28,686 nt of DNA. It comes from Eubacteriales bacterium. Its GTDB lineage: Bacteria; Bacillota; Clostridia; Oscillospirales; CAG-272. A program made the translations under genes and the position numbers. Every line of letters starts with the position of its first letter. The first letter of the stretch is position 1. This document shows positions 9,147 to 26,602 of the stretch, in pieces. The notes below the pieces were generated by a model. The model had not been told where the DNA came from, searched no databases, and saw nothing but the letters and a program-made list of their open reading frames with translations. The stretch is from positions 1 to 28,686 of the forward strand of contig JAZOPW010000225.1 of assembly GCA_045655785.1 (NCBI GenBank), in the 5' to 3' direction.

Positions 9147-9149
9147 CTT

Positions 9150-9163
9150 TGGCGGAGAAGGAG
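9150..9163 (-). repeat. Attachment-site direct repeat (copy of the tRNA-Ser 3' end, CTCCTTCTCCGCCA)
   Basis: TGGCGGAGAAGGAG at 9150-9163 is identical to 26511-26524, the last 14 nt of the tRNA including CCA. Confidence 0.9.
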
Positions 9164-9263
9164 CAAATTGTGTTATGTACACAACCATATACATTACGTT
9201 TGAATCAACATATTAGCATCCCCTATATTTTAACAATTTTCATTTCTCCAAAGCATCTTTTCC

Positions 9264-9989
9264 TTATGTTAAAAATTCCTTATTATCAAAATAAAATTCT
9301 TTCATATCATCAAGCCGCAGAAACATAGGTGTAGCTCCTCCGGATGCACCTACATCTATATCAATCCAAGTATCCGTATGAAATGCTTTGCCTTGAGCGC
9401 CATAGAAATATGTAGGGGTGTGTCCGAAAACCGTTAATATGTTATCAAAATATCGATCCTCTTTTTGGGGACGATTCCAAAGGAGGTCATTTTCCGAATA
9501 ATCAGACAGTTTTTTATTTTTATCGAAATTACGAAATCCTGAATGGCAAAGAAGAAAAGATTTTCCGTTTATTTCAACACTTTCACATAGGGGCGTATCA
9601 CGTAAATACGCTACCATGTCCTCAACTATTTCGGGTGATGTATGCAGTAAGCGTTTTACTTCGCCAAGTGTGGGAATTGCTCCGTTAGCTAACCAACAAT
9701 TTAGATTATCTAAATCTTTTGCGGATACATTGGATAGCGAGCGCTCTGTTATTGACTCAAAAACCCAAGTGCAAGAGATCATCATTTGTTCGTGATTTCC
9801 CCTTATCAATTGAACATTCGGTTGCTCAAGAAGCCACAACAATATAGCTATACCGCCATCATTATTTCGATCAATGACATCTCCTAAGATGTATAGCCAA
9901 TCACTTGGAGAAAATCCAATAATTTTCAATAGTTGCTTGAATTTTTTAATCGAAATTCCGTGAAGATCTGTAGTAACGTAAACTGCCAT
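9264..9989 (-). CDS. Calcineurin-like metallophosphoesterase, PPP-family Ser/Thr protein phosphatase-like
   Basis: Motifs DLHG, GDVIDR, RGNHE, HSG, FGHTP and IDVG in canonical order; RBS AAGGAG. Confidence 0.9.
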   Translation of the reverse strand: MAVYVTTDLHGISIKKFKQLLKIIGFSPSDWLYILGDVIDRNNDGGIAILLWLLEQPNVQLIRGNHEQMMISCTWVFESITERSLSNVSAKDLDNLNCWLANGAIPTLGEVKRLLHTSPEIVEDMVAYLRDTPLCESVEINGKSFLLCHSGFRNFDKNKKLSDYSENDLLWNRPQKEDRYFDNILTVFGHTPTYFYGAQGKAFHTDTWIDIDVGASGGATPMFLRLDDMKEFYFDNKEFLT

Positions 9990-10150
9990 CTTTCTCCTTA
10001 TTATTTCGTATATGCATCATAGTTGTAACTGTACCTAAACTCAGATGATTAGTAGTCTTAAATATTTCGTTGTGTGTCACTAGCCTAGCAGTACTTCAAT
10101 ACAAGTTAGCTCTGCGTTAGTATTCGTGTTATGTGATGGCACCGTTAACA

Positions 10151-11347
10151 TCAAGAAAGATTCCAATCAAGACGTAGTTTAAAACCATAGTCTTCATCAT
10201 TTGCGCACATTGCTACTCTGTTTGCTTCTACAGCTGGGGCAAAATCTCTATTTTGTCCACTCATACCACGTTTTTTGAACTCTCGAATATGATTTTCGGC
10301 AGTGTTGAGCATAAATTCATACGTATCATATGTTTCTTGATATGATTTCAACGACAACATATCACATTGGACTTTTAAGCAATGGAGATAATGTTTAAAG
10401 GAGTTCGTTTCGTTATAGTTCGTACTTGAAGGAACTGCGCCTTTGAATAACATTTCAGAGTATGGATTTTGAAATTCCCCTTGCGGTAGAAAAGCGTCAA
10501 GATATCCTCGTTGCATAGCAACATCGAGCAATGTAGCTTTATATTCACTAAATGCCGTAGGGAGATAATACCACGTGCTCTTGTGCTTGATATCGTCATC
10601 TTTGGGCGATTTGAATTTTGCAGGAACAAAAGATCGTGTATTCATATATGTGCCAGATGCAATGCCGTCTACATTGGCTAATGAATAAAGCAAACCTTGA
10701 TGATTGGAGTATCCCACAATCACTTGCTTTTTTGCAAGTTTTAAGCATGTGAACAATTTCAAAGCGCCTATCACCCAACTGGGATCAGAAACAATATACT
10801 CGTTATTGGAAGGATGAGGAATAATATAATACCCATCTACGGGAATTATCTTGAGTTGTTCCACTAAGCCCTCAATTGCAATGGGATTTCTAATGGTTTC
10901 TGGATATAAGCATAGTGTTGCAAGAAGCGGTTTGTCTGTTTTTTGAGAAAGATATGCTGCCGATTGATTCATGCAATTGAGTCCATAATTAAATTGATTC
11001 TCTTGCATTTCTATACCGGGAAGAATTATGTGCGAGCTGTTAATTTCATTGTTAATTCTTAACAATTCTCGGTTAATTGTTTCATATCCGTTTTGAGAGG
11101 TTATAGATACACCGCTTGATGGCCAGTAGTCATATGCTTGCAATTTTATGTGACCCTCTTTAGGATAGAACATTTGAGGATCAAAGAGAACCCGTCCTCC
11201 ACATGCATGGATTTTGTTCGCAAAACTAACAAGTTTATCTTGTTGAAGATTTACGGGGCTGATAATTACACTCCCTTTTCCCCAAGATTTTATTAATTCC
11301 TGGGATAACGCTTGCATTCCATGACCTAGTTGTAAATACAATTCCAT
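10151..11347 (-). CDS. Uncharacterised 398-aa protein, predicted (beta/alpha)8 TIM barrel
   Basis: Eight alternating short hydrophobic strands (LYLQLG, SVIISP, VLFDPQ, HIILPG, LLATLCL, GYYII, VIVGY, DGIASG) separated by helical segments. Starts 3 nt after the kinase stop, with RBS GGAGG. The fold is inferred by eye. Confidence 0.8.
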   Translation of the reverse strand: MELYLQLGHGMQALSQELIKSWGKGSVIISPVNLQQDKLVSFANKIHACGGRVLFDPQMFYPKEGHIKLQAYDYWPSSGVSITSQNGYETINRELLRINNEINSSHIILPGIEMQENQFNYGLNCMNQSAAYLSQKTDKPLLATLCLYPETIRNPIAIEGLVEQLKIIPVDGYYIIPHPSNNEYIVSDPSWVIGALKLFTCLKLAKKQVIVGYSNHQGLLYSLANVDGIASGTYMNTRSFVPAKFKSPKDDDIKHKSTWYYLPTAFSEYKATLLDVAMQRGYLDAFLPQGEFQNPYSEMLFKGAVPSSTNYNETNSFKHYLHCLKVQCDMLSLKSYQETYDTYEFMLNTAENHIREFKKRGMSGQNRDFAPAVEANRVAMCANDEDYGFKLRLDWNLS

Positions 11348-11350
11348 TAG

Positions 11351-12196
11351 TTAATCCTCCAGTTCAAGGGTGGCTCGGATAGCCGATAAATAGCGCAATG
11401 CATCTGCGGCAGTATCGGGGCGTTGAGATTGATTTTTTGCCATAAGCATATTAACAAATTGAGCAAACATTCCCTTAGTATCTCCCTGTAAAACCAATGA
11501 TGTTGGTATTAGTGACATAGTTCGTGTCATAATCTGATAAATCGTTTCATTAGGTTTTACAAATGGATTTTTCCCGGCACAACATTCGTATGTTGTAACC
11601 CCTATTTGAAACAAATCTGTACGAACATCTTGCGAGAGTTTGATGTTTGCGAATTGTTCATGAGGAGCATATCCAGGAGTAAACGGACCGTGTAACGCCC
11701 CTGTTTGCGTTATAGAGGTTCCACCAATTTTTTTGGCAAGGCCAAAATCAATAAGGTAAACCATTCCATTTGCTCCCAAAATAATGTTGTTAGGATTGAT
11801 ATCGCGGTGTAAAATATTGTTTTTTTCGAGTTCGATTTCAATACACAGCAAGGTTTCAAGAATTTTGAAAGCAAAAGACAAATCAGCTTTGTTTCCTTTG
11901 TTTAACCAATCTCGTAACGATGTGCCGGAGATATATTCCTCTACGATATAAAGGGCATCTTCGTTAACCGTTTCATCCGTTACAATACCGCTGTCAATGA
12001 TTTTGGGAACATTATTCAGATTCAATTGTCTAAGAATTGCAATCTCTTGCAAAACTCTAGGATCCGTAGCGTTTCCAATTATTTTCAAAGCTACTGTTTG
12101 TCCACTGGAATCTATAGCTGAATAAACAATTTTTTGCCCACCTTTTTTTATTTTGTTGATAGAAGTATAGTTCGCTTTTAACTCTGATATGTTCAT
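11351..12196 (-). CDS. Hanks-type Ser/Thr protein kinase, cytoplasmic, kinase domain only (~281 aa)
   Basis: GGQKIVY loop, VALK, HRDINPNN, DFGLAK, GYAPHEQ, DLFQIG and RP motifs. Likely start is ATG 12196 (RBS GAGGAG, ATGA overlap with the upstream stop), not 12235. No TM or PASTA domain. Confidence 0.93.
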   Translation of the reverse strand: MNISELKANYTSINKIKKGGQKIVYSAIDSSGQTVALKIIGNATDPRVLQEIAILRQLNLNNVPKIIDSGIVTDETVNEDALYIVEEYISGTSLRDWLNKGNKADLSFAFKILETLLCIEIELEKNNILHRDINPNNIILGANGMVYLIDFGLAKKIGGTSITQTGALHGPFTPGYAPHEQFANIKLSQDVRTDLFQIGVTTYECCAGKNPFVKPNETIYQIMTRTMSLIPTSLVLQGDTKGMFAQFVNMLMAKNQSQRPDTAADALRYLSAIRATLELED

Positions 12197-12966
12197 ATAT
12201 CCGTCTCCTCTGTATGTATCCATCGTAAAATCCACTCATTAAACTGAATGGAAGCGTATGAAACAGGAATACATCTTTTTGTGCTAGCAAGAGTTGTCTT
12301 AATTTTTCCATTCACTAGAATAATGCCCAATCCATCACTACTACATGTATCGATAATGGTTGATGAGCACGAATCTTTATTTAATAAAATATATGATTCT
12401 GTAGAAAACCAAATATTATTGTTTGCTTGTCGTATGGCTTCATTCCATTTGTCTATTTTTGCTTCGATCGCAATAATTTTATTTATTCTACAATACCTTC
12501 TAAAGTCAACATTGCTTGCATTATTTTTATCATCAGACAAATAAATCAATCCGCAATTAAATAATCTTAAAAGTGATTTTCGCACAACATCAGTTGGAAA
12601 ACCTAGTATATCGCTGATTTGTTTTGTCGAAGATTTTTTTTGTTTCTGTATGTAAAATAATATTTTAAAATCTGTAGTAGTTAAACTATTCCTTGTTTTA
12701 TCCCATGACAAATTTGGAACGGAATAAAATTCTACAATCACGATATCTGGATACCCGGTATCAATTTGAGGTTCGATAAATATAGCAGCTTTCTTAGATT
12801 TACATTTCGAATATTTTTTTATCAAAAACTCTATATATTTATTTACCATGTCAAACTCTTTACCGAGAGTACTTGTTCTTGATATATATCCAATTTGTGG
12901 AATAGAACTGTTAAATAAGATAATGTTTTGAGGAATTTGAATATTTCTTTCAAGTTGTTTTTTCAT
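12193..12966 (-). CDS. PD-(D/E)xK nuclease-fold protein with an inserted winged HTH
   Basis: FIEPQIDTGYPDIVIV (E...PD) and IIAIEAKIDKWNEAIRQA (ExK...Q) flank a wHTH-like segment, SSTKQISDILGFPTDVVRKSLLRLFNCGLIYL. ATGA overlaps at both ends. Confidence 0.75.
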   Translation of the reverse strand: MKKQLERNIQIPQNIILFNSSIPQIGYISRTSTLGKEFDMVNKYIEFLIKKYSKCKSKKAAIFIEPQIDTGYPDIVIVEFYSVPNLSWDKTRNSLTTTDFKILFYIQKQKKSSTKQISDILGFPTDVVRKSLLRLFNCGLIYLSDDKNNASNVDFRRYCRINKIIAIEAKIDKWNEAIRQANNNIWFSTESYILLNKDSCSSTIIDTCSSDGLGIILVNGKIKTTLASTKRCIPVSYASIQFNEWILRWIHTEETDI

Positions 12967-13172
12967 ACTGTATCACCTGAAGTTAATTCAAATGCTCTCA
13001 TAAATTTGGCATTGACAGCATCCGCAATTATTTCCAATTCCTCAATAGTAAAACTTTCTCTTTTTAATTTAGCGTTAAATGCTTGCGGTGAAGTTCCAAT
13101 TCTCCTGGCTAGCTCCGCTACGCTTATATTAGACCGAACACATAATACTTTTATTTGCTCAGAAATAGTCAT
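12963..13172 (-). CDS. Small XRE/Cro-type HTH protein (69 aa), first gene of the kinase operon
   Basis: SNISVAELARRIGTSPQAFNAKLKRESFTIEELEIIADAV; its stop overlaps the nuclease ATG. Confidence 0.85.
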   Translation of the reverse strand: MTISEQIKVLCVRSNISVAELARRIGTSPQAFNAKLKRESFTIEELEIIADAVNAKFMRAFELTSGDTV

Positions 13173-13201
13173 AAAACATTACCATCCAAACATAAAAATT
13201 C

Positions 13202-13254: not shown

Positions 13255-13332
13255 ACTCACACTAAAAAATTGCAGATAATCAAAAAACATTTATACACCA
13301 TACCTATGAAATCACAATCATAGGAGGTACAC

Positions 13333-13619
13333 ATGTTCCCATCCAAACGCTATGTAACGGCGGCGAGTCGAAAGATTCCGCTTGCCGTTCTATTATTTTT
13401 ATGACATTGCATTGCCGCACTACCTTTTCCGCCAGACTATTTATTGGCATTTGAACTATCCACCAAGAGTGGTCGGCTGAGAATCGTACACACACAGGAA
13501 TGTCTGGACTACCGCAAGGAATATCTGTTACTGTTGGACATAAAATCACAGTGAAACTTTATGTAATCAACGATGAAATACACGCAAACATGCTCTTATG
13601 TGAGGAGCTTCACATTTAA
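13333..13619 (+). pseudogene. Degenerate DUF960-family paralogue
   Basis: RBS GGAGG, then MFPSKRYVTAASRKIPLAVLLFL*HCIAALPFPPDYL...IVHTQEC..YRKEY...VKLYVINDEIHANMLL.EE. It aligns by eye with the next gene. A TGA at 13402 sits where the intact copy has Trp, and there is a frameshift near 13550. Confidence 0.8.
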
Positions 13620-13709
13620 AGAACGGCGCATTAGTCCCTATCTTTCATAATGTTTTTCGGCTTTTTTAAATTATATATTATCCCTCCGAAACAGAAAGGA
13701 GGAGTTTTT

Positions 13710-13997
13710 ATGTTTCCAAACCAAAGATACGTAACCGCGAATGTGATGCGAGCGGTTCCTCTCGATTTGCAAATATTCCTATGGCAATGTGCGGATAGCA
13801 TTTCGGTTGAGGCGGATTATCTGCAGATTTTCCAACTGTCAAAAGCAGATGGACTGCAAAAAATCGTGCATAAGCAAGAATGTCCACCGTACAAAAAAGA
13901 ATATCAGTTAGCACCGATCTTTCCGCTCGTCGAGGCGAAGATCTATGTTATCAATGATGAAACACACTCAACCATGCTATTTAGTGATGAGTATTAA
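13710..13997 (+). CDS. DUF960-family protein (95 aa)
   Basis: MFPNQRYVT...PLDLQIFLW...DYLQIFQL...IVHKQE.P.Y...KIYVINDETHSTMLFSDEY. Start reassigned to ATG 13710 after RBS AGGAGG. Confidence 0.8.
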   Translation: MFPNQRYVTANVMRAVPLDLQIFLWQCADSISVEADYLQIFQLSKADGLQKIVHKQECPPYKKEYQLAPIFPLVEAKIYVINDETHSTMLFSDEY

Positions 13998-14046: not shown

Positions 14047-14143
14047 GAAAAACGGATTGAAAATTTCAAGGAAATCTACGAATGGCAATTTCAATGAAAA
14101 AAGTTTAAAATATAATTATATTCAAAAGAAGGAGGATAATTTT

Positions 14144-14386
14144 ATGGATGCACAAGATTTTGCAGATATTTACTTTGAGATTGCAAATGCGGTCGGAGCA
14201 GAAAATGCGGTAAAGATACATGGTCTTTTCAAGGGGCAACAGATCCAATTTCCACAAAAGCTGTATAAGAAAGAATACATTTATTCCTATATCAAGAAGA
14301 ATTATAACGGTCAGAACATCCGTGAATTATCTCAAAAATTCGGATATTCCGATCGGCGTATCAGGCAGATTATCAATTCAGGATGA
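14144..14386 (+). CDS. Mor transcription activator family protein (80 aa)
   Basis: IANAVGAENAVKIHGLFKGQQIQFPQK...YNGQNIRELSQKFGYSDRRIRQII matches the Mor/C pattern; start ATG 14144 after RBS AAGGAGG. Confidence 0.8.
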   Translation: MDAQDFADIYFEIANAVGAENAVKIHGLFKGQQIQFPQKLYKKEYIYSYIKKNYNGQNIRELSQKFGYSDRRIRQIINSG

Positions 14387-14686: not shown

Positions 14687-14791
14687 ATGAAAAAGCGTTA
14701 TGAAAATCCCCAAGTTTGTGTTTTGGAGCTTTCTAACGAGGATGTTCTCACCACATCGGGTGGGGATGAAAATCAAGGCGAGTGGACTTGA
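14687..14791 (+). CDS. Unannotated 34-aa peptide MKKRYENPQVCVLELSNEDVLTTSGGDENQGEWT
   Basis: Strong RBS AAGGAGG upstream of ATG 14687; TGA at 14789-14791; YxxP leader-like motif. Too short for the ORF track. Confidence 0.75.
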   Translation: MKKRYENPQVCVLELSNEDVLTTSGGDENQGEWT

Positions 14792-14805
14792 CTGCTCAAA
14801 AAACA

Positions 14806-14848
14806 AACAGTCGGTGTATTATGATTCTCTCAAAATACACCGACTGTT
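14806..14848 (+). other. 15-bp perfect inverted repeat between the peptide gene and the LRR gene
   Basis: AACAGTCGGTGTATT (14806-14820) and AATACACCGACTGTT (14834-14848); no U-tract follows. Confidence 0.85.
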
Positions 14849-14876
14849 CCCAACATTAAAAAGGAGATTAAGGAAA

Positions 14877-16994
14877 ATGAAAAACAAAAAATTTTTATAT
14901 TTATTAACTCTGTTGATTTTAGTCCCCCTGATTGGAACTATAACAATTTTTGCAACAGGTACTTCAACTGAACCAACTTTGAGTATTGACAAATTCAATT
15001 TGTCCTTTTCGGATTCTATCTACATCAAATATGCGGTCAAGATTGACGGTGTTGACGCAACATTGTTGGGAGATGATTTTCGAATGCTTTTTTGGACGGT
15101 ACCGCAAAGTATTTATGAAAAAGGAACTGAAGCGAGCAGTATCGTTTCTACCGATACACAAACGATCAACGGACAGAAATATTATATTTTCGATTATAAA
15201 AAACTTGCCGCTAAACAAATGACCGACGCAATCTATGCAAGAGCCTATCTGCTTGTTGACGGAAAGGCATATTACAGCGAGGTGGAAAAATACAGTATCC
15301 TTGACTATGTATATACGAAGCTTGGAAAGACCGGAACTGCAACGAACGATGAAAATTTGAAAGTGTTACTTGCCGAGATGCTTTCCTACGGTGCATCAGC
15401 GCAAACATATTTTAATTACAAAATCGACAGACTTGCTACCGCTGATTATTATCAGATTACAGTAGGCGGCGAGGGATATATATCCTCCGACCTCTGTCAA
15501 CATGGGTTGTATTTAAAGGGGGAAACGGTTGAGATTACTGCCCCCGAAAGAAACAGTGATGGTGTTATATTTGCATATTGGATGGATATTAACGGAAATA
15601 AAATTTCGACCACTCGAACTTATCGTGCAACTGTCGAAGCTGAGAACAAGACTTTTATACCCAAATTTACGCATACCGACTTTGAATCCCTGAGATTAAT
15701 CCAAACAGAATTTGAAAAATTGCCAAGCAGCTTTGTTCAGTCAGACATTCATTCTTATAAACAAGCAGTTGCCTTACTTAATTCCGTATTGGAACAAATT
15801 GATGAATATGAATCCTCTTATGAGTGTCCTGATTTGAATAATTGCTCTCAATGTAATTTCGGTCATGATATTGATCTTTGGGCTTTGAGAACAGATGCAT
15901 TATCTACTATCGGATCTGCTTATGCTTCGCATTATAACGAACTATTAGCGAATGGGGGCGATATTAATGAATCCCATGCGCAGTCTGTTCTGTCATTATA
16001 TAAAGAATATTCAGCATTATTAGCAACTTGCACCGTTAATGATGTAGAAAATATCAAGACACAGGCAATGGATGAACTTGAAAAATATCCTGTATGTAGT
16101 ATTACAGCAAAAGGAACATGCGGTGAAAATCTTAGTTGGGAATATTACGGAAGTACAAAAACACTCATTATTACCGGCACGGGCGATATGACATCTAACC
16201 CTTGGTCTCCTTCTTACCGTGAAGAAATTTCAACTGTTATTCTGAGGGATGGCGTAACATCTATTACAGATAGTGCTTTTAAGTATTGCGCTAAGTTAAG
16301 TAGCATTTCTATTCCAAATACTGTTACAAAAATAGGAGACTATGCATTTTACGAGTGTTATGCATTATCCACCATCAATATACCGAATCAATTAGTAAGT
16401 ATTGGTTCTCACTTGTTTTATAATTGTACTAGCCTAGAAACAATAATAATTCCTCAAAACATCACCAGTATTGGTTGGCGAGCCTTTTTCAATTGTAAAA
16501 AGTTAACCCACGTCATAATTCCTGATTCAGTAACTAGCATAGGCAAGGAAGCATTTAATAACTGCGATAGCCTTGTTAGTGTTGTAATCGGCAATGGATT
16601 AACATGTATTGATGAATATTTATTTAACAGTTGTGACAACCTAGAAAAAATTACAATTGGAAGTAACATAAAAACTATTAAAACATACGCCTTTGCAAAT
16701 TGTAAAAAAATAAGCAGCATAGTTATACCAGCCAATGTAACCGGCGTTGACGGATATGCATTTAGATATTGCGAAAATCTTTCAAGTATAACTATTTTAG
16801 GTGATATATCGGCGATTTCTGCATTATATGATTGTGATAATCTTGTTGTATATTACGCTGGAACGGAATGTGAGGAAGAGAATCTAAGAACCGGCGGAAA
16901 CACCTTCGCTCCAATTTACTGTTATGCTGAAACGAAACCAATAGGAAAAGGACGATACTGGCATTATGTAAATGATATCCCTACAATTTGGTAA
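14877..16994 (+). CDS. Secreted surface protein with C-terminal BspA-type leucine-rich repeats (LRR_5), 705 aa
   Basis: Start ATG 14877 (RBS AAGGAG); signal peptide MKNKKFLYLLTLLILVPLIGTITIFA; one InlB-B-like module; repeats of the form SIGxxAFxNCxxLxSIxIPxxVT. Confidence 0.9.
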   Translation: MKNKKFLYLLTLLILVPLIGTITIFATGTSTEPTLSIDKFNLSFSDSIYIKYAVKIDGVDATLLGDDFRMLFWTVPQSIYEKGTEASSIVSTDTQTINGQKYYIFDYKKLAAKQMTDAIYARAYLLVDGKAYYSEVEKYSILDYVYTKLGKTGTATNDENLKVLLAEMLSYGASAQTYFNYKIDRLATADYYQITVGGEGYISSDLCQHGLYLKGETVEITAPERNSDGVIFAYWMDINGNKISTTRTYRATVEAENKTFIPKFTHTDFESLRLIQTEFEKLPSSFVQSDIHSYKQAVALLNSVLEQIDEYESSYECPDLNNCSQCNFGHDIDLWALRTDALSTIGSAYASHYNELLANGGDINESHAQSVLSLYKEYSALLATCTVNDVENIKTQAMDELEKYPVCSITAKGTCGENLSWEYYGSTKTLIITGTGDMTSNPWSPSYREEISTVILRDGVTSITDSAFKYCAKLSSISIPNTVTKIGDYAFYECYALSTINIPNQLVSIGSHLFYNCTSLETIIIPQNITSIGWRAFFNCKKLTHVIIPDSVTSIGKEAFNNCDSLVSVVIGNGLTCIDEYLFNSCDNLEKITIGSNIKTIKTYAFANCKKISSIVIPANVTGVDGYAFRYCENLSSITILGDISAISALYDCDNLVVYYAGTECEEENLRTGGNTFAPIYCYAETKPIGKGRYWHYVNDIPTIW

Positions 16995-17059: not shown

Positions 17060-17104
17060 CGCTTTGGGGGTGATTTCAGTAGTCACCCCCAAAGCGTTTT
17101 TTAT
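17060..17104. terminator. Terminator between the convergent LRR and HTH genes
   Basis: 14-bp stem CGCTTTGGGGGTGA/TCACCCCCAAAGCG followed by TTTTTTAT. Confidence 0.85.
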
Positions 17105-17105
17105 A

Positions 17106-17282
17106 TCAATGATTTTCTATATGAGCCACCACACTCTCCTTGGGTATTTTCCACCTACTCCCAATCTTAAATCCCTCAATCTGTCTTGTGTGCAACAGCT
17201 CCAGCATGGTGTTTTTGCCAACCTTGAGTATCTGTTGGCACTCCTTTAACGTCATTATTTCGGGGATATTTTCGTACATCAT
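17106..17282 (-). CDS. Excisionase-like helix-turn-helix protein (HTH_17 type, 58 aa)
   Basis: PEIMTLKECQQILKVGKNTMLELLHTRQIEGFKIGSRWKIPKESV; start reassigned to ATG 17282 after RBS AAAGGAG. Confidence 0.85.
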   Translation of the reverse strand: MMYENIPEIMTLKECQQILKVGKNTMLELLHTRQIEGFKIGSRWKIPKESVVAHIENH

Positions 17283-17427
17283 ATCCGCTCCTTTCGTTTT
17301 ATTTTTTGGTTTGCGTTGGTTTGAAACAGACCTTTTTGGTTTGTTTTGCCATCGCAAGCCTTATTTTTTTGTTTATATATTATCGTCTTGTAGGAAACCA
17401 AAATAAAACTTTCAGGAGGATAAAACC

Positions 17428-18603: not shown

Positions 18604-18604
18604 G

Positions 18605-19549
18605 ATGTGCGGATTGTTTGGATTTTCGGATTACAGTGGGAAAAGCACCAAGGGCTTGTCCGACCTTACCAATTCTCTTGCCGAGCAATCTGCGGTCAGA
18701 GGGATTGACGCTACGGGGATTGCTTTTTGTAGACCGGGCGGTATCAACATTCAAAAGGAGGCGAAATCGGCGTATGCTTTGGATTTCAAGCATCCCGATG
18801 ATGTTCCCGCATTGATCGGTCATACAAGGCATTCGACACAAGGGGACGAGAAAAAGAACTTCAACAACCATCCGTTCTACGGAAAGGCAAAAGGCGTCCG
18901 CTTTGCGCTTGCTCATAATGGTGTGCTATTGAACGACGAGGATTTGAGAAAAGAACTGAATCTTCCCAAGACCAAAATCAAGACCGATTCCTTCATTGCG
19001 GTACAGTTGATCGAGAGTCGAAAGGTCTTTAATATCGACAGTATCAAATACATGGCGGAGCAAGTCAAGGGGAGCTTTTCGTTTTCAATCTTGGATGATC
19101 GGAACAACGTCTATCTCGTTAAAGGTGATTCACCGCTCTCGATCCTGCATTTTCCAAAGCAAAAGCTCTACGTCTATGCCAGCACCGAGCCGATTCTCTA
19201 CAAGGCGTTGGTGGATACCAAACTCTTTGATGCGTTGAAGATTGGAGACTATGAGGAGATCCCGATTGAGGAGGGTGAGATTCTTAAGATTCGTCCCGAT
19301 GGAAAGATCGAACGGCATCACTTTCATTATAGCTACTACAAATCCAAGGGCTGGTGGGAGTATGATGGATATGCATCCTATGGTCTATCCTTCGGGAACA
19401 CAACGGGGAGTGAGCGGGATGCCTATATTGATGCATTGAAATCGATTGCGGCATACCAAGGGGTGTCAATTGGTGTAGTCGATGAACTGCTAAAAGAAGG
19501 CTTTACACCGGAGGAAATCGAGGAGTACATTTATGAGTTCGCGTACTGA
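18605..19549 (+). CDS. Class II (Ntn) glutamine amidotransferase
   Basis: Likely start ATG 18605 gives MCGLFG (catalytic Cys2); RGIDATG, GHTRHST, NNHPF, AHNG and TDS motifs; 1 nt after the amidoligase stop. Confidence 0.9.
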   Translation: MCGLFGFSDYSGKSTKGLSDLTNSLAEQSAVRGIDATGIAFCRPGGINIQKEAKSAYALDFKHPDDVPALIGHTRHSTQGDEKKNFNNHPFYGKAKGVRFALAHNGVLLNDEDLRKELNLPKTKIKTDSFIAVQLIESRKVFNIDSIKYMAEQVKGSFSFSILDDRNNVYLVKGDSPLSILHFPKQKLYVYASTEPILYKALVDTKLFDALKIGDYEEIPIEEGEILKIRPDGKIERHHFHYSYYKSKGWWEYDGYASYGLSFGNTTGSERDAYIDALKSIAAYQGVSIGVVDELLKEGFTPEEIEEYIYEFAY

Positions 19550-19718
19550 CAAAGACGACAAAAAAAGAAGAAAATATTGGCGGACGAAGTTGGATCTTAT
19601 CAAAGCAAGAAGTAAGCTGTTTTGCATCCTTTATGCCCCCGTCATCGTTACACTTCTCGAAATTTTTGCAGACGAATATCGAGAATATAAAGCAAAACAC
19701 AAGAACAACAATCCGTAA
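19533..19718 (+). CDS. Possible small hypothetical protein (61 aa)
   Basis: GAGGAG upstream; overlaps the end of the amidotransferase; no recognisable motif. Confidence 0.3.
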   Translation: MSSRTDKDDKKRRKYWRTKLDLIKARSKLFCILYAPVIVTLLEIFADEYREYKAKHKNNNP

Positions 19719-19850: not shown

Positions 19851-20399
19851 ATGATAATTGGATATATCAGAATTTCCTCTACCGATCAGAACACAGCGCG
19901 CCAAGAAGTACTGATGAAGGAACTGAAGGTGGAACAAATCTTCATTGACCGTATGAGCGGAAAGAACCCCGACCGTCCGGAGCTTAAACGTATGATGAGC
20001 TTTGTACGTGAAGGGGACACGGTGATCGTCGAATCAATCAGCCGATTTGCGAGAAATACTCGTGATCTTCTATCTCTCGTCGAACAACTCTTGGCAAAGA
20101 ACGTGGAATTCAAATCAAACAAAGAAGCCATTGACACGGCAACCCCTACGGGCAAATTCATGCTTACTGTCTTCGGAGCAGTCGCCGAGCTGGAGCGAGA
20201 ATATATTTTGCAACGCCAAAAAGAAGGCATCGCTATAGCCAAGGCGAATGGAATCTATAAAGGGCGTAAACCCATTGAACGCGCAGAGCTTGTCTCGGTT
20301 GTGGCACAATGGAGAGCGGGCAAAATCACAGCAGTTCAGGCAATGAAACAACTGGACATGAAGCCAAGTACGTTTTATAGGAGAGTAAAACAGATATGA
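19851..20399 (+). CDS. Small serine recombinase (resolvase/invertase family)
   Basis: IGYIRISSTDQNTARQ (catalytic Ser), GDTVIVESISRFARN, C-terminal HTH. Confidence 0.93.
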   Translation: MIIGYIRISSTDQNTARQEVLMKELKVEQIFIDRMSGKNPDRPELKRMMSFVREGDTVIVESISRFARNTRDLLSLVEQLLAKNVEFKSNKEAIDTATPTGKFMLTVFGAVAELEREYILQRQKEGIAIAKANGIYKGRKPIERAELVSVVAQWRAGKITAVQAMKQLDMKPSTFYRRVKQI

Positions 20400-20746
20400 G
20401 AGTGTTAATTGTTGAACCGTTGAAACCGCCGTATGAGAGGGATATTGATAGAGGATTGGAATCCATGCAAAAGATCGTAAGTGGATATATCCAAGTCATC
20501 TATCCCTTTGAAGACGAAGAAATTGCTCTGATTTGTAACGAAGAGGGTAAGTTGAGAGAGCTTACTTTTAATCGTGCCTTGAGAGACGGAATCGGAACCA
20601 TATACGACATAGTGGTTGGAACGTTCATTCTCTGTCGGGCACCGGTAGATGAGGGAAATTTTGTAGGTTTGACGGATGAGCAACTTGAATTTTGCAAGAA
20701 GAGATTCGAAGAAATCGATCTGTTTTTAATTGATTTATCACTATGA
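20396..20746 (+). CDS. DUF3846-family protein
   Basis: MRVLIVEP..PPY......LESMQ.IV.GYIQ..YP.....ALICNEEGKL..L.FNR......DIVVGTF pattern; ATGA overlap with the resolvase. Confidence 0.75.
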   Translation: MRVLIVEPLKPPYERDIDRGLESMQKIVSGYIQVIYPFEDEEIALICNEEGKLRELTFNRALRDGIGTIYDIVVGTFILCRAPVDEGNFVGLTDEQLEFCKKRFEEIDLFLIDLSL

Positions 20747-21005: not shown

Positions 21006-21950
21006 ATGAAAGATAAAAAAATTAAAAGAGAGAAAAAAGAAAGAAGATCTTTTCCTGAAAAAGAATATTACCGTGTAGGTATTAATATTGCGACATTGCG
21101 TAATATTCATGGAGAAACACAAGAAGAATTGGCTCTTTCGATCGGAGTTTCCAAAGCTGCTATTTGTAATTATGAAACCGGCAAGCGAATTCCCAACCGC
21201 GATGAATTGCATGCAATAGCAAAGCATTATAATTTAACCGTTTCTCGGTTGATGCGTGGGGATTTTTCAAAAGTTCACATTGAAAAAGATATCATGGTAA
21301 CCGACCCCAATAATATGGCAATAATTCTTGAACGCATATTACCCATTATATCGTCCGAAATCTCTATGGAAAACAAACATTTTAAAAAAGCGTTCGATTT
21401 ACATTGTAAAGTAGCAGAGGATTTGTGCTATTCAAGTGAGAGCCCCGATGCAGCCATGATAGAACAATATACAACACTATATCAAAAAGCAATAGAGGAA
21501 GGTGTCTATGACGCATGTGTCAATAGTCTATGGTGGCCGATGTACATTTTGATAGGAATGTCCCATCTCTCGACATCTCCATTTGATTTGAACGAATCAT
21601 TTTTCAAAGCAACCGCAGACGATATATATCACAAGTTATACATGAGAAATTATGACGATGAAATTGATAAAGCTTGGGAAAAAGGGAAAAAGGAGCTTTT
21701 TGAAGAGATGCGTCCCGATATCATGTCAAATCTTGTATATCTAAAAAATGTTGGAGATCCGGATTTACATGAAATTGCAGATTATTATATCGCTTTAGGG
21801 TATTTGTTTAATGTTTTCAAAACAGATTTATCTGTAGAAGAAAGTCGAATGGTAGGACAAGAACTACTATGTATGTGTATACGTATGAATAATGAATACG
21901 CAAAAACCTTTTTGTCTACTACCAACCAAATAAATAAATCTATAAATTAA
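21006..21950 (+). CDS. XRE-family HTH regulator with a large helical C-terminal domain
   Basis: NIATLRNIHGETQEELALSIGVSKAAICNYETGKRIP; extended -10 TGGTATAAT near 20931-20939. Confidence 0.85.
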   Translation: MKDKKIKREKKERRSFPEKEYYRVGINIATLRNIHGETQEELALSIGVSKAAICNYETGKRIPNRDELHAIAKHYNLTVSRLMRGDFSKVHIEKDIMVTDPNNMAIILERILPIISSEISMENKHFKKAFDLHCKVAEDLCYSSESPDAAMIEQYTTLYQKAIEEGVYDACVNSLWWPMYILIGMSHLSTSPFDLNESFFKATADDIYHKLYMRNYDDEIDKAWEKGKKELFEEMRPDIMSNLVYLKNVGDPDLHEIADYYIALGYLFNVFKTDLSVEESRMVGQELLCMCIRMNNEYAKTFLSTTNQINKSIN

Positions 21951-21967
21951 ATACTGAAAAATAAAAG

Positions 21968-22205: not shown

Positions 22206-23735
22206 TTGCCTGTTACGCCCGTTACAGTTATGCCAAAAGATAATTATGATCTGATCAACAACACCGAAGAACCTTCCGTATTTAAAGGAAAGGAACCAGA
22301 CGAAAAAATCAAACAGAAAGTTGCTGAAAAAGCAAAAAAAGCATCAGATACTGCTGGCGATCTTAATAAAGTGGCTGATGAATTAATGAAATTCAATATT
22401 GTAGAAGAAGTTTTTGATGAACTTATGCAATCGTATGATTTTATTTCTGTTGAAGAGAAGCTTTATGTGTACGTAAAAGAATTCGGCTATTGGAAATTAA
22501 TAACTGATAGTGAAAGCCAACGCGAATTAAGAAGAAGAGTAGATCGAAAATGGCGAGGGCGTATCAACAAAAATAACCTTCAGGAACTTTATGAGTGGTT
22601 GATATTAGACGCAAGGCACATAGATTCTTCTCGCTTTAGAGAGGGACGTCATTATTTGAATTTTTCTGATGTAGCATATAATTGGAAAAAGGATAAAGTG
22701 ACCAAAGATCGCAAAGCGCTTTATTTTCGCTATGCCTTGAAAGTTCCTTTCAAATGCAAATACGATGAATCGGGGGCTTTTCAAAAATTTTTGACAGATA
22801 TTTTTGACACCGATAAAAATTCTCTTGCAGAATTTCAAAAATTTATAGGACTTGCCCTGAGTGATATTAGAACACTCAAGTATGCGTTCGTATTTTATGG
22901 TCCTTCTAATACGGGTAAATCTGTAACCATGAATTTGCTTCGTTATTTGGTTGGAGCTGAAAATACCGCATCCGTCTCTTTTTCACAGATGTCATCCGAA
23001 TTTCACACTGCCCAACTTCATAACCGACGAATTAACTGTTCTGCCGAAGTTTCCGGAGTAACCCTGTCTCGCTTGGATGTCTTTCGTGCGCTCTGTGGAA
23101 ACGATGAAATCCTAGTGTCCAATAAGATGAAAGATCCTTTTGGCTTTATTAATCGGTGTCTTTTACTGTTTTCCTGCAATGTTCTTCCGAAAATTTCAGA
23201 TCCAATGGAAGCGCAGAGTGTGGTAGAAAGACTCATTATCTTCCCGTTCAACAATGTAAAAAAACGAGAAGAATGGGAGCCCAAATTGGCTGAGCGTCTC
23301 TTTCAGGACTACCCATCCGTTATTGAATTTGCCATTGAAGGACTTCGTTTGTTGGAAAAAGATGATTACACGATCAAAGAAAGTCCGGAAATGCTTCGCT
23401 GCAAAGAACAATATGCGGGCACCTACGACAGTTTTTCCTTATTCGCCCAAGAATACATACAAGCGTCTAAGGATACCAAGATTGCCAGTGCACGCATTAA
23501 AGAAACATACCATCGATATTGTACTCTCAAAGATTGCCAAGAGCTAAACGACAATGTTTGGGGACAGATGCTCAAGCGCGATTTTGATTGTGTCTCTTGT
23601 ACCATGAGCGATAAAAGCACCGGTCAAAGTCATCGTGTTCGTGCATATCAAGGTATTACCTTAAAAAAAGATATCGAGAAATTATTTAATGAAAAAACAC
23701 CCGAAATGACCCTTTCGGATATTTTAAAATGTTAA
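22206..23735 (+). CDS. D5/P4-family SF3 helicase (phage/plasmid primase C-terminal type), no recognisable primase domain; start uncertain
   Basis: D5_N-like region (YLNFSD...), Walker A GPSNTGKS, LLFSCN, C-terminal wHTH-like segment. Confidence 0.88.
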   Translation: MPVTPVTVMPKDNYDLINNTEEPSVFKGKEPDEKIKQKVAEKAKKASDTAGDLNKVADELMKFNIVEEVFDELMQSYDFISVEEKLYVYVKEFGYWKLITDSESQRELRRRVDRKWRGRINKNNLQELYEWLILDARHIDSSRFREGRHYLNFSDVAYNWKKDKVTKDRKALYFRYALKVPFKCKYDESGAFQKFLTDIFDTDKNSLAEFQKFIGLALSDIRTLKYAFVFYGPSNTGKSVTMNLLRYLVGAENTASVSFSQMSSEFHTAQLHNRRINCSAEVSGVTLSRLDVFRALCGNDEILVSNKMKDPFGFINRCLLLFSCNVLPKISDPMEAQSVVERLIIFPFNNVKKREEWEPKLAERLFQDYPSVIEFAIEGLRLLEKDDYTIKESPEMLRCKEQYAGTYDSFSLFAQEYIQASKDTKIASARIKETYHRYCTLKDCQELNDNVWGQMLKRDFDCVSCTMSDKSTGQSHRVRAYQGITLKKDIEKLFNEKTPEMTLSDILKC

Positions 23736-23751
23736 AAGAAGGAGACTGTAA

Positions 23752-23892
23752 ATGATGAAACAGGAACGAAATATAACTTTTTTATCTTCTGCACTTAATC
23801 TTTCTGTCGAAGAGCATCTCAATATGCTTTGTCAGATAATGGAAGCCGCGGAACCAGACAGGCATTCGTCCGAGCAGATAACAGCCGCATAA
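23752..23892 (+). CDS. Small ORF (46 aa) between the helicase and the integrase
   Basis: RBS GAAGGAG; MMKQERNITFLSSALNLSVEEHLNMLCQIMEAAEPDRHSSEQITAA; not in the ORF track. Confidence 0.5.
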   Translation: MMKQERNITFLSSALNLSVEEHLNMLCQIMEAAEPDRHSSEQITAA

Positions 23893-23935
23893 CTACTTGA
23901 GTTTCTACATTTTTCCATGAAAGGAGGTGAGCAGA

Positions 23936-25453
23936 ATGAAGCGAGCCATTGCTTATGCGAGATTTTCCAGTGATCTTCAGCGCGAAGAGTCTATCGATGC
24001 GCAAATCCGCGCCATCCGTAAATATTGCGACGAGAACGATTTCGTTCTGCTCGCTACCTTTGCGGACAAAGGAATTTCGGGCACCTCGGACAATCGTCCC
24101 GAATTTCAAAAAATGATTTCGACAGCAATCAAAGGAGAAGTGGACGCAGTGATCGTCCACAAGCTCGACAGATTTGCCCGCAACCGCTATGACTCGGCAT
24201 TTTACAAAAATATTCTGAAAAAGAATAATGTCAAGCTGATCTCGGTGCTCGAAAATCTACAAGATAGTCCCGAAAGCGTAATCCTTGAGTCGGTTATTGA
24301 AGGCATGAATGAATATTATTCTCTGAACCTCTCTCGTGAGGTTCGGAAGGGTTTGCAGGAGAATGCGCTTGAATGCAAGGTCACAGGCGGTCCTCCCGCA
24401 CTTGGATATTCGGTTGACCGCTCCACACAAAAATACGTGATCAATGAATATGAGGCGGAAGCCGTTCGTATGATCTTTCGAATGTATTTGGACGGCTACT
24501 CCTACACCGAAATCATTAGTGAGCTGAATCGAAAGGGATATCGCACACGTCGCGGACTTCCGTTTGCAAAAAACTCGTTGTATGAAATTCTTCGAAATGA
24601 GCGGTATAAGGGCGATTACATCTATGTGAAAGATGCTACCAAGAATCCCAAGGGTAAGTATGTCCGCCATGGCAAATACGATCCCGAAGCTGTGATCAGA
24701 ATCCCCGGAGGGATGCCACAAATCATCTCTCCCGAGGATTTTGATCGAGTGCAAATTAAGATGAAAGAGCGTCAGCATAAAGCTGCCAAATTCTCCGCTA
24801 AACAAGAGTATTTGTTGAGCGGCAAGATCTACTGTGGCGAGTGCGGAAGCCCCTATGCAGGAAATTCCCGCAGACCTCGCCCAGGGCATCCAATGTACGT
24901 TTCCTACAAATGCACAAGACGCAACCAACGAGACAAGTACTGCAAGAACCCAGAGATCAATCGGGACAAGCTGGAGCAATTGGTATTGGATCGGTTGTCA
25001 AAGGTGCTTTTTAATCCCAATGTGATTCCGCAGCTTGTAAAGCAGTACAACGAATACATAGCCGAGAAGACCGGGAGTGCCAAGGAACGAACTCTTGCAT
25101 TACAGACAGAGCTTCGTGATGTGGAGCGGAAGATTACCAACACGGTCAATCTCATGGTTGAAACCGGATCTTCCGCCTTTAAAAACAAGCTGTTTGAGCT
25201 GGAACAGACCAAGGAAAAGCTATTGTTTTCTCTGAATGAAGCAGAGGCGGCATTGAAGCAAGAGACCTTCTCCGAGGATCAAATCCGTAAACTCTTTCAT
25301 ACCGCCGAGCAGCAGCTCAAGAACGGTACATTAGCGAATCGACGTATGGTGATCGATCAGTATATCAACAAGGTTCTCATTTATCCCGATAAGATTGAGG
25401 TGTATATGAATCTTATGAGTGATTATACGGTGAAGGAAACGATTAAGCAATAA
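23936..25453 (+). CDS. Large serine recombinase (integrase)
   Basis: AYARFSS (catalytic Ser), DKGISG, HKLDRFARN, recombinase domain, Zn ribbon LLSGKIYCGECG...YKC...C and coiled coil. Start ATG 23936 after AAGGAGG. Confidence 0.95.
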   Translation: MKRAIAYARFSSDLQREESIDAQIRAIRKYCDENDFVLLATFADKGISGTSDNRPEFQKMISTAIKGEVDAVIVHKLDRFARNRYDSAFYKNILKKNNVKLISVLENLQDSPESVILESVIEGMNEYYSLNLSREVRKGLQENALECKVTGGPPALGYSVDRSTQKYVINEYEAEAVRMIFRMYLDGYSYTEIISELNRKGYRTRRGLPFAKNSLYEILRNERYKGDYIYVKDATKNPKGKYVRHGKYDPEAVIRIPGGMPQIISPEDFDRVQIKMKERQHKAAKFSAKQEYLLSGKIYCGECGSPYAGNSRRPRPGHPMYVSYKCTRRNQRDKYCKNPEINRDKLEQLVLDRLSKVLFNPNVIPQLVKQYNEYIAEKTGSAKERTLALQTELRDVERKITNTVNLMVETGSSAFKNKLFELEQTKEKLLFSLNEAEAALKQETFSEDQIRKLFHTAEQQLKNGTLANRRMVIDQYINKVLIYPDKIEVYMNLMSDYTVKETIKQ

Positions 25454-25459
25454 TTGATA

Positions 25460-25485
25460 AAGGGAAAGGCGCCCGCCTTTCCCTT
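25460..25485. terminator. Hairpin terminator between the convergent integrase and HEPN genes
   Basis: AAGGGAAAGGC-GCCC-GCCTTTCCCTT. Confidence 0.8.
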
Positions 25486-25491
25486 GTTAAG

Positions 25492-26439
25492 TTATTCGTT
25501 GGTTTGTTGTTCTGACTCTATACTGACAAGAGTAGAAAGTGCATTGAATACTTTTAGGCATCCAATTTTATCGCCTTCTTTTCCGGTCCGTCCATGCTGA
25601 ATCCAATGTCGATTTATTGAATCTGGCTCTATCTGTGAAAAATCACTTTTTTGATATAAAATCACTATGTATTGATACATGGATATCCAACACAAATTTT
25701 TTATATATTTGCCTTTGCTTAACTCTTCATCTGCATGGAATTTACATATTCTCATTACACGAACATCATTTGTATTATCTCCAAAGGTTGAAATAAATCC
25801 TTCTAGCACAGTAAGTAGAGTAGTTAAACAGGTGGAATACAATCCTGCTTCATATGATAGCACGCATTCGTTGAAAATGTTTTTTTGAGCTTCATTTTGG
25901 ATGCTTTTAGATATTTTTCTGCAAATGTACTTGAACTCTCTGTTAATGTAGTAGTTTTCGAAAAATTGATTTAGAGCATTTTCGTCATCTGCAGCTTTTT
26001 TTAAATCGCCAAATCTGCGCAAATCTATGTTAAGGGGAATTGTCCATCCAGCATTGGCAATTTTCTCTATGATAGATTTATATTCGTCATTTAATATTTT
26101 AAGAGGATCTTCCAAATCTGATTGTGGAGCACCTTCTAGCTTATAATACGGAAGATCTCGGTTGTTTCGAAGAATATCGCTAAATTTATTCTGTATTACC
26201 TTTTTACGCAAAGAAACCGGGAGCTTTTTTATTTTTTCCATTTCAATATCTGCAGCATGCTTGGTATATTCATTGTATATACGAATAACCTCTTCCTCTG
26301 TTAAAGCAAATTCCTTAGAAACCAACTCGAACACTTTTTTGTCGTGTTTAGAAGGATAATAACCGCCATCTTGAAGTTCCAAATCCTTAAAGCCTTTTTG
26401 ACAAGCTTCTACAATTTTACTGTTTTCTATCGTTGCCAT
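25492..26439 (-). CDS. Hypothetical protein with a C-terminal HEPN-like domain (putative RNase/Abi effector)
   Basis: Helical C-terminus with ECVLSYEAGLYSTCLTTLLTVLEG and NRHWIQHG (RxxxxH); RBS AGGAG; AT-rich. Confidence 0.7.
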   Translation of the reverse strand: MATIENSKIVEACQKGFKDLELQDGGYYPSKHDKKVFELVSKEFALTEEEVIRIYNEYTKHAADIEMEKIKKLPVSLRKKVIQNKFSDILRNNRDLPYYKLEGAPQSDLEDPLKILNDEYKSIIEKIANAGWTIPLNIDLRRFGDLKKAADDENALNQFFENYYINREFKYICRKISKSIQNEAQKNIFNECVLSYEAGLYSTCLTTLLTVLEGFISTFGDNTNDVRVMRICKFHADEELSKGKYIKNLCWISMYQYIVILYQKSDFSQIEPDSINRHWIQHGRTGKEGDKIGCLKVFNALSTLVSIESEQQTNE

Positions 26440-26478
26440 ATGTTTCTCCTGTTTAGATTATACTCGTATGATAAAGAA

Positions 26479-26508
26479 CAAGTCCACAACATTGCTGTTG
26501 TGGACTTG
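26479..26508 (-). terminator. Element-supplied hairpin directly downstream of the tRNA CCA; overlaps the att arm
   Basis: Perfect 12-bp stem CAAGTCCACAAC-N6-GTTGTGGACTTG, followed on the minus strand by TTCTTTAT. Confidence 0.7.
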
Positions 26509-26510
26509 GA

Positions 26511-26602
26511 TGGCGGAGAAGGAGAGATTTGAACTCTCGCGCCGGTATAACCGGCCTACACCCTTAGCAGGGGCGCCTCTTCGGCCCCTTGAGTACTTCT
26601 CC
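26511..26602 (-). tRNA. tRNA-Ser(GCT)
   Basis: GGAGAAG/CTTCTCC acceptor stem, anticodon loop CT-GCT-AA, long variable arm GCCGGT-TAT-ACCGGC, T-arm GAGAG-TTCAAAT-CTCTC, encoded CCA. Confidence 0.97.

Follow-up and report, generated by a model that had tools for sequence, protein, structure and literature searches.

A 17.4-kb island at a tRNA-Ser(GCU) 3' end in a gut Clostridia genome, probably inserted by its own large serine recombinase

The tRNA-Ser(GCU) locus

The DNA considered here, called the window below, is the whole of contig JAZOPW010000225.1 (C225; 28,686 nt) from a metagenome-assembled genome (MAG) of an Eubacteriales bacterium (GCA_045655785.1; GTDB CAG-272). Between a tRNA-Ser(GCU) gene and a displaced copy of that gene's 3' end it holds a candidate mobile element, which carries a large serine recombinase (LSR). 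The MAG comprises 2.09 Mb in 415 contigs, with 69% completeness and 3.6% contamination. Relative genomes are given G numbers (G000 being the source MAG), loci L numbers and contigs C numbers. An earlier note, made from the letters of the window, had proposed a complete element inserted in this tRNA gene; its description of the ends proved accurate, as did its unit length, while some of what it said of the contents needs amending.

ARAGORN calls a single tRNA in the window, tRNA-Ser(GCU) on the minus strand at 26511-26602. It is intact, apparently regenerated, with 7/7 acceptor pairs kept, and on its host side there is a consensus sigma-70 promoter upstream (26649-26677, minus strand; TTGACA-17-TATAAT, 12/12). 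The sequence TGGCGGAGAAGGAG, which is the complement of the last 14 nt of the tRNA with the encoded CCA included, is present at 26511-26524 and again at 9150-9163, just as the earlier note had it, giving a repeat-to-repeat unit of 17,361 bp (26511-9150). Some 14-nt repeat is expected about once by chance anywhere in 28.7 kb, but a second copy anchored at the terminal base of the tRNA is expected only about 2 x 10^-4 times (28,686 x 2 / 4^14). The 14-mer has three copies in the 2.09-Mb assembly, all of them at island junctions, the third being on contig C409. Between the repeats GC content ranges from 0.30 to 0.51, against 0.495 for the genome.

The left copy also abuts the orphan terminator that had been claimed for it, an 11-pair hairpin at 9117-9142 (minus strand) followed by TTTTTAT on the tRNA strand. 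This hairpin is homologous to the one directly after the intact tRNA-Ser in three same-genus genomes (G019, G016 and G007), where an uninterrupted tRNA-Ser runs straight into the homologous terminator, and we read it as the displaced native terminator of the tRNA, on the B' side of attR. When the window's flanks are joined at 9149/26511, they align across the joint with G019, G016 and G007 at 88.8% (223 bp), 83.3% (221 bp) and 81.4% (221 bp), respectively. We considered the possibility that the hairpin is instead an arm of the element and rejected it, since it matches hairpins after intact tRNAs in relatives; a caveat to its being the native terminator is that an island with a tyrosine integrase in G016, discussed below, duplicates that same terminator.

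The large serine recombinase

Near the tRNA-proximal end of the unit, on the plus strand at 23927-25453, lies a gene for a 508-aa LSR, the probable integrase. Its domains are PF00239 (3.4e-29, residues 7-147), PF07508 (1.6e-23) and PF13408 (4.3e-15), it matches the PHROG integrase family phrog_95 (1.8e-123), and the motifs are intact, including the catalytic YARFSS (in AYARFSSDLQ), DRFARN and the four cysteines of the zinc ribbon. Its relatives in the PDB are the integrases of TP901-1, SPbeta and A118, and it aligns to the A118 and SPbeta chains. The closest phage homologue is the integrase of Moorella phage MCACPph1, at 44% identity; a literature search on that phage returned no papers.

The LSR is accompanied by a second, smaller serine recombinase of the resolvase type (19851-20399, plus strand; 182 aa), which is intact, with the catalytic motif IRISSTDQ and its serine, and a C-terminal helix-turn-helix (HTH), and which by Pfam has neither the recombinase nor the zinc-ribbon domain. 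The element thus has two serine recombinases, and not only a serine integrase as the earlier note had stated. That note's other statement on integrases stood: a six-frame search of the whole assembly with PF00589 (E <= 0.1) gave five matches, none of them on the window contig, and the listed open reading frames (ORFs) of the element include no Pfam match to a tyrosine recombinase. Four tyrosine recombinase genes above the Pfam cut-off are present elsewhere in the MAG.

Sister elements and their conserved arms

To place the LSR among its relatives, homologues were scanned in one genome per species, and 49 loci with LSR relatives were recovered. Seven full-length homologues from seven other species, at 82-88% identity, form a clade with the window LSR (support 100/100). 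Five of them (L017, L018, L019, L021 and L023) adjoin tRNA-Ser(GCU), their side and strand matching the window, as do two partial homologues, L026 and L063. Of the remaining two in the clade, L020 abuts a displaced 23-nt tRNA fragment and L022 is on a contig that ends too early to show its neighbour.

What these loci share at the tRNA is an arm. In the window the P' arm (26479-26510, minus strand) is the hairpin AAGTCCACAAC ... GTTGTGGACTT abutting the tRNA end, with 13 pairs at 26479-26508 and a terminator-like form on the tRNA strand, and element-side homology at this end begins at about 26473-26477. A P' hairpin arm of 34-38 nt abuts the tRNA in all seven tRNA-adjacent loci (L017, L018, L019, L021, L023, L026 and L063). 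The gap from LSR to tRNA varies from 220 to 8002 bp among the sister elements, and the intervening DNA is unrelated. We predict that the P' hairpin would act as a replacement terminator for the tRNA.

At the other end, the P arm, which is the inner arm of attR, occupies 9164-9185 (plus strand) and ends in ATGTACACAAC. The motif CACAAC stands at nt 17-22 after the core in the window and in the terminator-core junctions of G045, G043, C409 and L065. Both element ends can be seen on one contig in G045 and in G043, with cores 15,881 bp and 40,637 bp apart, respectively, and the outer junctions of both consist of the local terminator, the core and the P arm. The arrangement P'-core-P, which is the form expected of attP, is contiguous on four contigs, one from a metagenome (L073) and three from MAGs (L064, L065 and L027), and these four natural attP-type junctions have CACAAC at nt 17-22 too, with variants. 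This means that the predicted attP does exist as contiguous DNA. L073, which was recovered from metagenome contigs by the pattern of P' arm, core and first P-arm base, belongs to a different family member, and the L027 contig, inspected for circularity, has no terminal overlap. In G052 an empty attB, the tRNA-Ser followed by its terminator, is on C28 (L085), and an unrecombined P'-core-P junction is on C168 (L064:2200) beside a family LSR reduced to an 84-residue fragment.

These comparisons bear on whether the contig is sound. An assembly chimera joined at shared tRNA-end or arm sequences is conceivable in a MAG of 415 contigs, 69% complete and 3.6% contaminated, which has a second attR-type junction on C409. 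However, the order LSR, P' arm, tRNA has been independently assembled in at least seven other MAGs, and the G045 and G043 contigs each hold both ends, so that a chimera is hardly credible.

Tandem arrays are seen in L065 and G051, with a possible cassette that has no LSR. L065 (8846-16224) has the order P'-core-P arm, a trio of genes, then hairpin-core-P arm. The trio encodes a seven-transmembrane LuxR regulator (64% aa identity), a protein of 145 aa (63% aa) and, where the window has its giant adhesin, a protein of 1762 aa; its orientation is opposite to that in the window, and it is preceded by a 34-codon LSR remnant. The trio is possibly one unit of a tandem array, a cassette that lacks an LSR. 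Since the left-flank trio lies between two cores in L065, DNA to the left of 9112 in the window may be, or may have been, mobile. In the source MAG itself, C409 has a second terminator-core-P-arm junction (6571-6622; L013:2572-2623), whose terminator is 94% identical to window 9112-9164. Its P arm, cgttgcatcccatggacacaac, is followed by high-GC DNA that contains a membrane-protein gene, and on its terminator side there is a DUF960 gene with 87% nt identity to window 13671-13997.

Crossover point and attachment sites

We looked for inverted symmetry in seven attP sequences, of which three were reconstructed and four natural. The GG of core positions 11-12 is the one clear centre, matching at 87 of 168 positions where the runner-up matches at 61, and both half-sites carry CA.GT.CACAAC at equal distance from the GG. 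The GG is inside the 14-nt identity, and attP consists of imperfect inverted half-sites of about 24 nt, as is the layout in a serine-integrase attP. We predict strand exchange at this GG, which corresponds to tRNA positions 65/66, the junction of the T stem and the acceptor stem, and in the window lies at 9160-9161 in the attR core (9150-9163, plus strand) and at 26521-26522 in the attL core (26511-26524, plus strand), the latter being the last 14 nt of the tRNA. The dinucleotide is non-palindromic and so gives direction to the exchange. An element-supplied tRNA end explains why the identity reaches the terminal tRNA base on one side and just 2 nt past the GG on the other. The core also follows the rest of the tRNA: a T at core position 10 (L018, L026 and L028) occurs exactly where the 5' strand of the tRNA is GGAGATG, and 7/7 acceptor pairs are found in every locus.

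Other targets and a second kind of island in the same tRNA

Outside the clade of the window LSR, other clades are found beside other stable-RNA genes. A sister clade holds L024, which has the tRNA-Ser core and a tRNA-like fragment. In a further clade with 100/100 support, at 41-44% identity, L029 and L030 adjoin tRNA-Pro(CGG), and another 100/100 clade consists of tmRNA-adjacent genes, among which the stop codons of Vallitalea L032 and L059 are 17 bp from the tmRNA 3' end; the LSR gene of Thermoanaerobacterium (L051) ends 20 bp from a tmRNA 3' end. The assignment of these clades to tRNA-Pro and tmRNA is one of adjacency. A search for the far end of the tRNA-Pro elements gave only, on a different contig of the genome that holds L030, a displaced tRNA-Pro end of 13 nt joined to an element arm. 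At position 1113 of L075 (G050:C321), a displaced 13-nt tRNA-Pro(CGG) 3' end is followed by an arm with CCTGCGACC; the T arm of the tRNA has this motif as well, but 5 nt closer to the core (compared with L077 and L078). Structural work on the A118 integrase reportedly describes a 5-bp difference in register between attP and attB half-sites, and the L075 spacing is reminiscent of it.

The same tRNA-Ser(GCU) also receives islands of the tyrosine kind. In G016, L014 (C44; 2-56 and 13086-13218) is a 13-kb island with a tyrosine integrase at 9990-11180 (PF00589, 6.4e-29) and a RhuM-family gene, bounded by a repeat that takes in the terminator and 23 nt of the tRNA, with its end in the T loop. Comparable junctions, with 21-23 nt, are seen in G045:C95 (a pair separated by 228 bp), in G042:C183 and at L020:13512. 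The presence of a tyrosine island with a different, 23-nt repeat in the same tRNA suggests that the 14-nt class is specific to the LSR family, and that two recombinase families share one tRNA at different exchange points.

It could be argued that a tyrosine integrase supplied in trans from another island made the insertion in the window, with the LSR a passenger. The 3' end of a tRNA is the classical target of such enzymes, four of their genes are present elsewhere in the MAG, and this very tRNA hosts a tyrosine-integrase island in G016. The junctions speak otherwise: those of the tyrosine type include 21-23 nt of tRNA sequence, reaching to or into the T loop, while the 14-nt class always comes with LSR-family arms, the LSR clades track the target, and attP has 24-nt inverted half-sites around a dinucleotide. 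We regard an insertion by a tyrosine integrase in trans as very improbable.

The proposed insertion and points against it

By comparison, then, the LSR is very likely the catalyst of the insertion, as the earlier note had supposed, because close homologues elsewhere adjoin the same tRNA with the same element-end sequences, and because LSR clades track the target gene and the att arms show serine-integrase symmetry. We put a probability of roughly 85% on the reading that a mobile element with a unit of 17,361 bp occupies 9150-26524, inserted by its own LSR into the 3' end of tRNA-Ser(GCU). In the mechanism that we propose, the LSR would pair an attP of about 50 bp (P' hairpin arm, 14-nt core, P arm) with an attB made up of the T-stem/acceptor region of the tRNA and the start of its terminator, and strands would be exchanged at the GG of core positions 11-12. 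The element would donate the terminal 11 nt of the tRNA (3' acceptor strand, discriminator and CCA; bases 26511-26521) together with a hairpin terminator, and the native tRNA 3' end and native terminator would end up 17.4 kb away.

Several observations weigh against this reading or limit it. To the left of the core the relatives diverge past about 42 bp, thus the empty site is demonstrated only locally, and the comparison with relatives suggested by the earlier note bears out the joined 9149/26511 junction in three same-genus species, over this short stretch. A two-sided empty site was not obtained from the relatives, in which left-flank synteny is not kept; the left flank's LuxR-type gene occurs in four same-genus relatives, but away from any tRNA or convincing copy of the core. 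An exact scan of metagenome contigs for terminator plus core, as would be expected of a same-species empty site, gave no match. As for the circle, the attP pattern of the element is absent from the viral contigs searched and its sole metagenome match is not from the window element, while all four natural attP-type junctions sit beside truncated LSR genes and none is demonstrated as a circle. No recombination directionality factor was identified in the element. An identity of 14 nt is long for a serine integrase, although its length would be explained by the need to rebuild the tRNA end. With one intact tRNA-Ser(GCU) in the bin, the C409 junction must come from a different strain, from a second locus or from within an array; it may mean that the bin mixes strains, or that the locus is more complex than one insertion. 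Lastly, the conserved small serine recombinase could take part.

Some of these points would equally suit an element that was inserted by the LSR and has since become a fixed, immobile island with the repeats as its scar. No circle junction or empty site for the element was found in the collections searched, no directionality factor was identified, and decay is common in related loci, with truncated LSR genes in L027, L028, L064 and L065. In the window, by contrast, the LSR frame and motifs are intact and both arms match the family consensus, and sister LSRs 82-88% identical are found in different species, implying recent spread. We therefore consider fixation unlikely, though deserving of more weight than the other alternatives, and infer that the element is still mobile. 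The earlier note's word "complete" holds for both ends and for the LSR, and the element as a whole is presumably complete.

The remaining alternative is that the LSR does not act alone, the 182-aa small serine recombinase being a required partner for integration or excision, or even the integrase itself. The small recombinase is intact, and sister elements that retain its region have a homologue; moreover, pairs of an LSR and a small recombinase have been described in ssrA islands (PMC3146451), where DsiA and DsiB are proposed partners, and in pipolins (PMC11551731). It lacks domains for reading att sites, however, and the identity among its homologues, 34-83%, is out of step with the nearly invariant att arms. 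A module of amidoligase, GATase and resolvase occurs on C310 and C93 of the source MAG with no close LSR homologue detected there, and small serine recombinases usually resolve or invert. The pipolin enzyme has been proposed to maintain the circular form (PMC11551731), a role that would fit a replicating circle here. A required partnership is thus rather doubtful. Most likely the small resolvase resolves multimers, and a helper role like that of DsiA, by analogy, is possible.

Gene content

Pfam was run on 20 ORFs of the window and PHROG on 10, and PADLOC was used for defence genes. Just inside the P arm is a first cargo slot, read on the minus strand, with genes for a metallophosphatase (9264-9989), a 398-aa protein of no assigned function (10151-11347), a Ser/Thr kinase (11351-12235), a winged-HTH protein (12193-12966) and a Cro/C1 HTH protein (12963-13172), all but the 398-aa protein being Pfam assignments. 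Its proteins (9264-13172) have no homologues in the sister elements, which is why we regard the slot as variable cargo. An 81-aa ORF (13304-13549, minus strand) is common to L018 and L020, and a DUF960 gene (13650-13997, plus strand; Pfam) to L018, L020 and C409.

The genes that follow are all on the plus strand. A Mor-family activator (14057-14386; Pfam) and a cargo gene for a BspA-type leucine-rich-repeat protein (14700-16994; PF13306, 1.4e-67) precede the backbone genes for Amidoligase_2 (17428-18603; Pfam) and a class-II GATase (18572-19549; Pfam). Beyond the small resolvase come DUF3846 (20396-20746; Pfam), a 314-aa HTH_3 regulator (21006-21950) and a replication protein of the primase-helicase type (22206-23735), with D5_N and DUF5906 in Pfam and matches to PHROG DNA-primase families down to 5.8e-43. 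The LSR follows, and between it and the P' arm a second cargo slot holds a gene for a 315-aa all-helical protein (25492-26439, minus strand).

Sister elements that retain the region carry the amidoligase, GATase and resolvase, while the type of replicative helicase varies. The backbone consists of amidoligase, GATase, small resolvase, replication helicase and LSR, and next to each end a slot holds variable, partly defence-like cargo. In L066 (G045:C19), a 15.9-kb sister element between 2553 and 18434, a superfamily 2 (ResIII/DEAD) helicase replaces the D5-type helicase, and at the P-arm end a WYL-WCX regulator and a dynamin-family GTPase stand where the window has its kinase block. From such comparisons of sequence, the cargo slots and the replication module appear to be exchangeable among sister elements. 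The amidoligase-GATase segment (17091-19552), at a GC content of 0.46-0.51, is above the rest of the element; it has further copies in the MAG at C310:2142-4582 and C93:331-2289 (83-85% nt, about 90% aa), each with the beginning of a small resolvase gene (40% aa) after it.

No Pfam match among the 20 ORFs, and no PHROG match among the 10, indicates a capsid, terminase or packaging gene, although several small ORFs match nothing, and the scanned window ORFs include no Pfam match to a relaxase or type IV secretion system. As Iyer et al. (2009) are said to describe them, DUF3846 and the amidoligase-GATase pair would be the sole genes hinting at a transferable element. Our reading is that of a self-replicating integrative element with two cargo slots, which would replicate after excision.

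The earlier note had seen defence-like cargo at both ends. This is borne out at the left, where the kinase matches PADLOC PD-T4-6 at 1.8e-41; at the right, the 315-aa protein is only weakly HEPN-like. That protein was modelled because it is located where a tyrosine integrase would be expected. Its family is widespread, comprises 83 homologues at 37-92% identity, with no Pfam model, and has as invariants W132, P135, an NRHWxxHGR motif and R277-x4-H282. The AlphaFold2 model is all helical (predicted local distance difference test score 89.9), and residues 178-315 align to HEPN domains at Z 5-7 by VIA-align, which is weak for a helical bundle; Foldseek of the model against the PDB gave no match. 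Searches of Pfam, PADLOC and PDB sequences with the 315-aa and 398-aa proteins were empty, and in PHROG the 315-aa protein matches only a family of unknown function.

Outside the element, the left flank holds a host-side gene (2-7342, minus strand) for a protein that exceeds 2447 aa and has seven Flg_new_2 (InlB B-repeat-like) domains, and the right flank one for a protein with collagen triple-helix repeats (27585-28418, plus strand). Just upstream of the tRNA promoter, at 26681-26839, there are host-side tandem arrays of 22-nt units x 2.9 (TTTTTTTCGGTTTTACAAAACA) and 18-nt units x 4.6 (CAAAGCTTTTCCTTTTCG).

Significance

Island finders built on a tyrosine-only rule, such as Islander (PMC4383910), would miss or misattribute elements of this kind, and in gut Clostridia the rule should be qualified. 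The island also suggests how a serine integrase can use an essential gene harmlessly, with a crossover at tRNA positions 65/66 and an element that brings the 11-nt 3' end and a terminator. The family provides natural serine integrases with an attB whose gene is highly conserved; across the species examined, core and tRNA-side arm are identical, and such an attB could permit landing-pad-free integration in poorly tractable anaerobes.

The slots beside the att sites differ in each relative, with kinase/phosphatase and HEPN-like genes in the window and WYL and dynamin-like GTPase genes in G045, and the family may be a vehicle for defence genes. We would give even odds to a broader proposal: that an LSR lineage of Clostridia is directed to the very 3' termini of stable-RNA genes and has separate clades for tRNA-Ser(GCU), tRNA-Pro(CGG) and tmRNA, with a P' arm serving as replacement terminator, a core that co-varies with the acceptor stem, and SCC-like tandem arrays, some of whose cassettes can be LSR-less and moved in trans. 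If this is true, the lineage is the serine-recombinase counterpart of tDNA targeting by tyrosine integrases.

Comparison with known systems

Well-studied phage serine integrases are known to insert within protein-coding genes. The window LSR resembles those of phages A118, TP901-1, SPbeta and phiC31 in its domain architecture and catalytic motifs, in attP half-sites of about 24 nt and in a non-palindromic dinucleotide, but it targets a tRNA end and rebuilds it, and no phage structural genes were detected in the element by the scans above. Among integrative and mobilizable elements with site-specific serine recombinases, those studied so far disrupt dispensable genes, according to a review (PMC5704250). 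The earlier note's remark that a tRNA target and a serine integrase are an uncommon pairing is in keeping with the literature: Hudson et al. (2015; PMC4383910), whose Islander reports tyrosine integrases only, by design, wrote that serine integrases were not known to have tRNA genes as targets, yet precedents exist (PMC3146451; bioRxiv 10.1101/2020.12.28.424599).

Tyrosine-integrase islands with the Islander signature share with the window an intact tRNA and a displaced 3' fragment in direct orientation, a restored gene, and an integrase gene near the tRNA-proximal end. The window differs in having no tyrosine integrase on board and in a repeat of 14 nt that reaches the T-stem/acceptor junction, and not the 23 nt to the T loop seen in G016.

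The staphylococcal cassette chromosome elements (SCC and SCCmec) are likewise inserted, driven by LSRs, at the extreme 3' end of a conserved gene whose function is kept, with short direct repeats, a replicative helicase and a DUF960 gene, and they form tandem arrays, as L065 and G051 do in the window's family. Their target is rlmH (orfX) and their recombinases are CcrAB or CcrC, which we compare by description, whereas the window has tRNA-Ser(GCU) and a single LSR with a small resolvase. The helicase here is D5_N/DUF5906 and not DUF927/Cch, and DUF950 and DUF1643 were not found among the window's Pfam matches.

Tycheposons are a further case. Hackl et al. (bioRxiv 10.1101/2020.12.28.424599) report an LSR in place of a tyrosine recombinase for 27 of 937 tycheposons and related elements. 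The LSR-bearing elements of Prochlorococcus resemble the window's in being cargo-carrying, self-replicating and integrative, with small serine recombinases, primases and helicases in modules, while phylum and gene set differ.

The Dehalococcoides islands at the tmRNA gene (ssrA), with the LSR DsiB and the small serine recombinase DsiA (McMurdie et al. 2011; PMC3146451), offer many points of likeness. They are of similar size, have a direct repeat of a stable-RNA gene 3' end and variable cargo, and place the LSR gene by the att site beside the intact RNA gene, with a small serine recombinase in company; distant homologues of the window LSR, moreover, lie within about 20 bp of tmRNA 3' ends. In the window the target is tRNA-Ser(GCU) and not tmRNA, the host is a gut Clostridia MAG, and the backbone has amidoligase, GATase and a D5-type helicase in place of RecF, ParB and Mom (DsiB being compared here by description). 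The proposed insertion is well supported, with LSR islands in stable-RNA genes as precedents, and the window island belongs to a gut Clostridia family of such islands.

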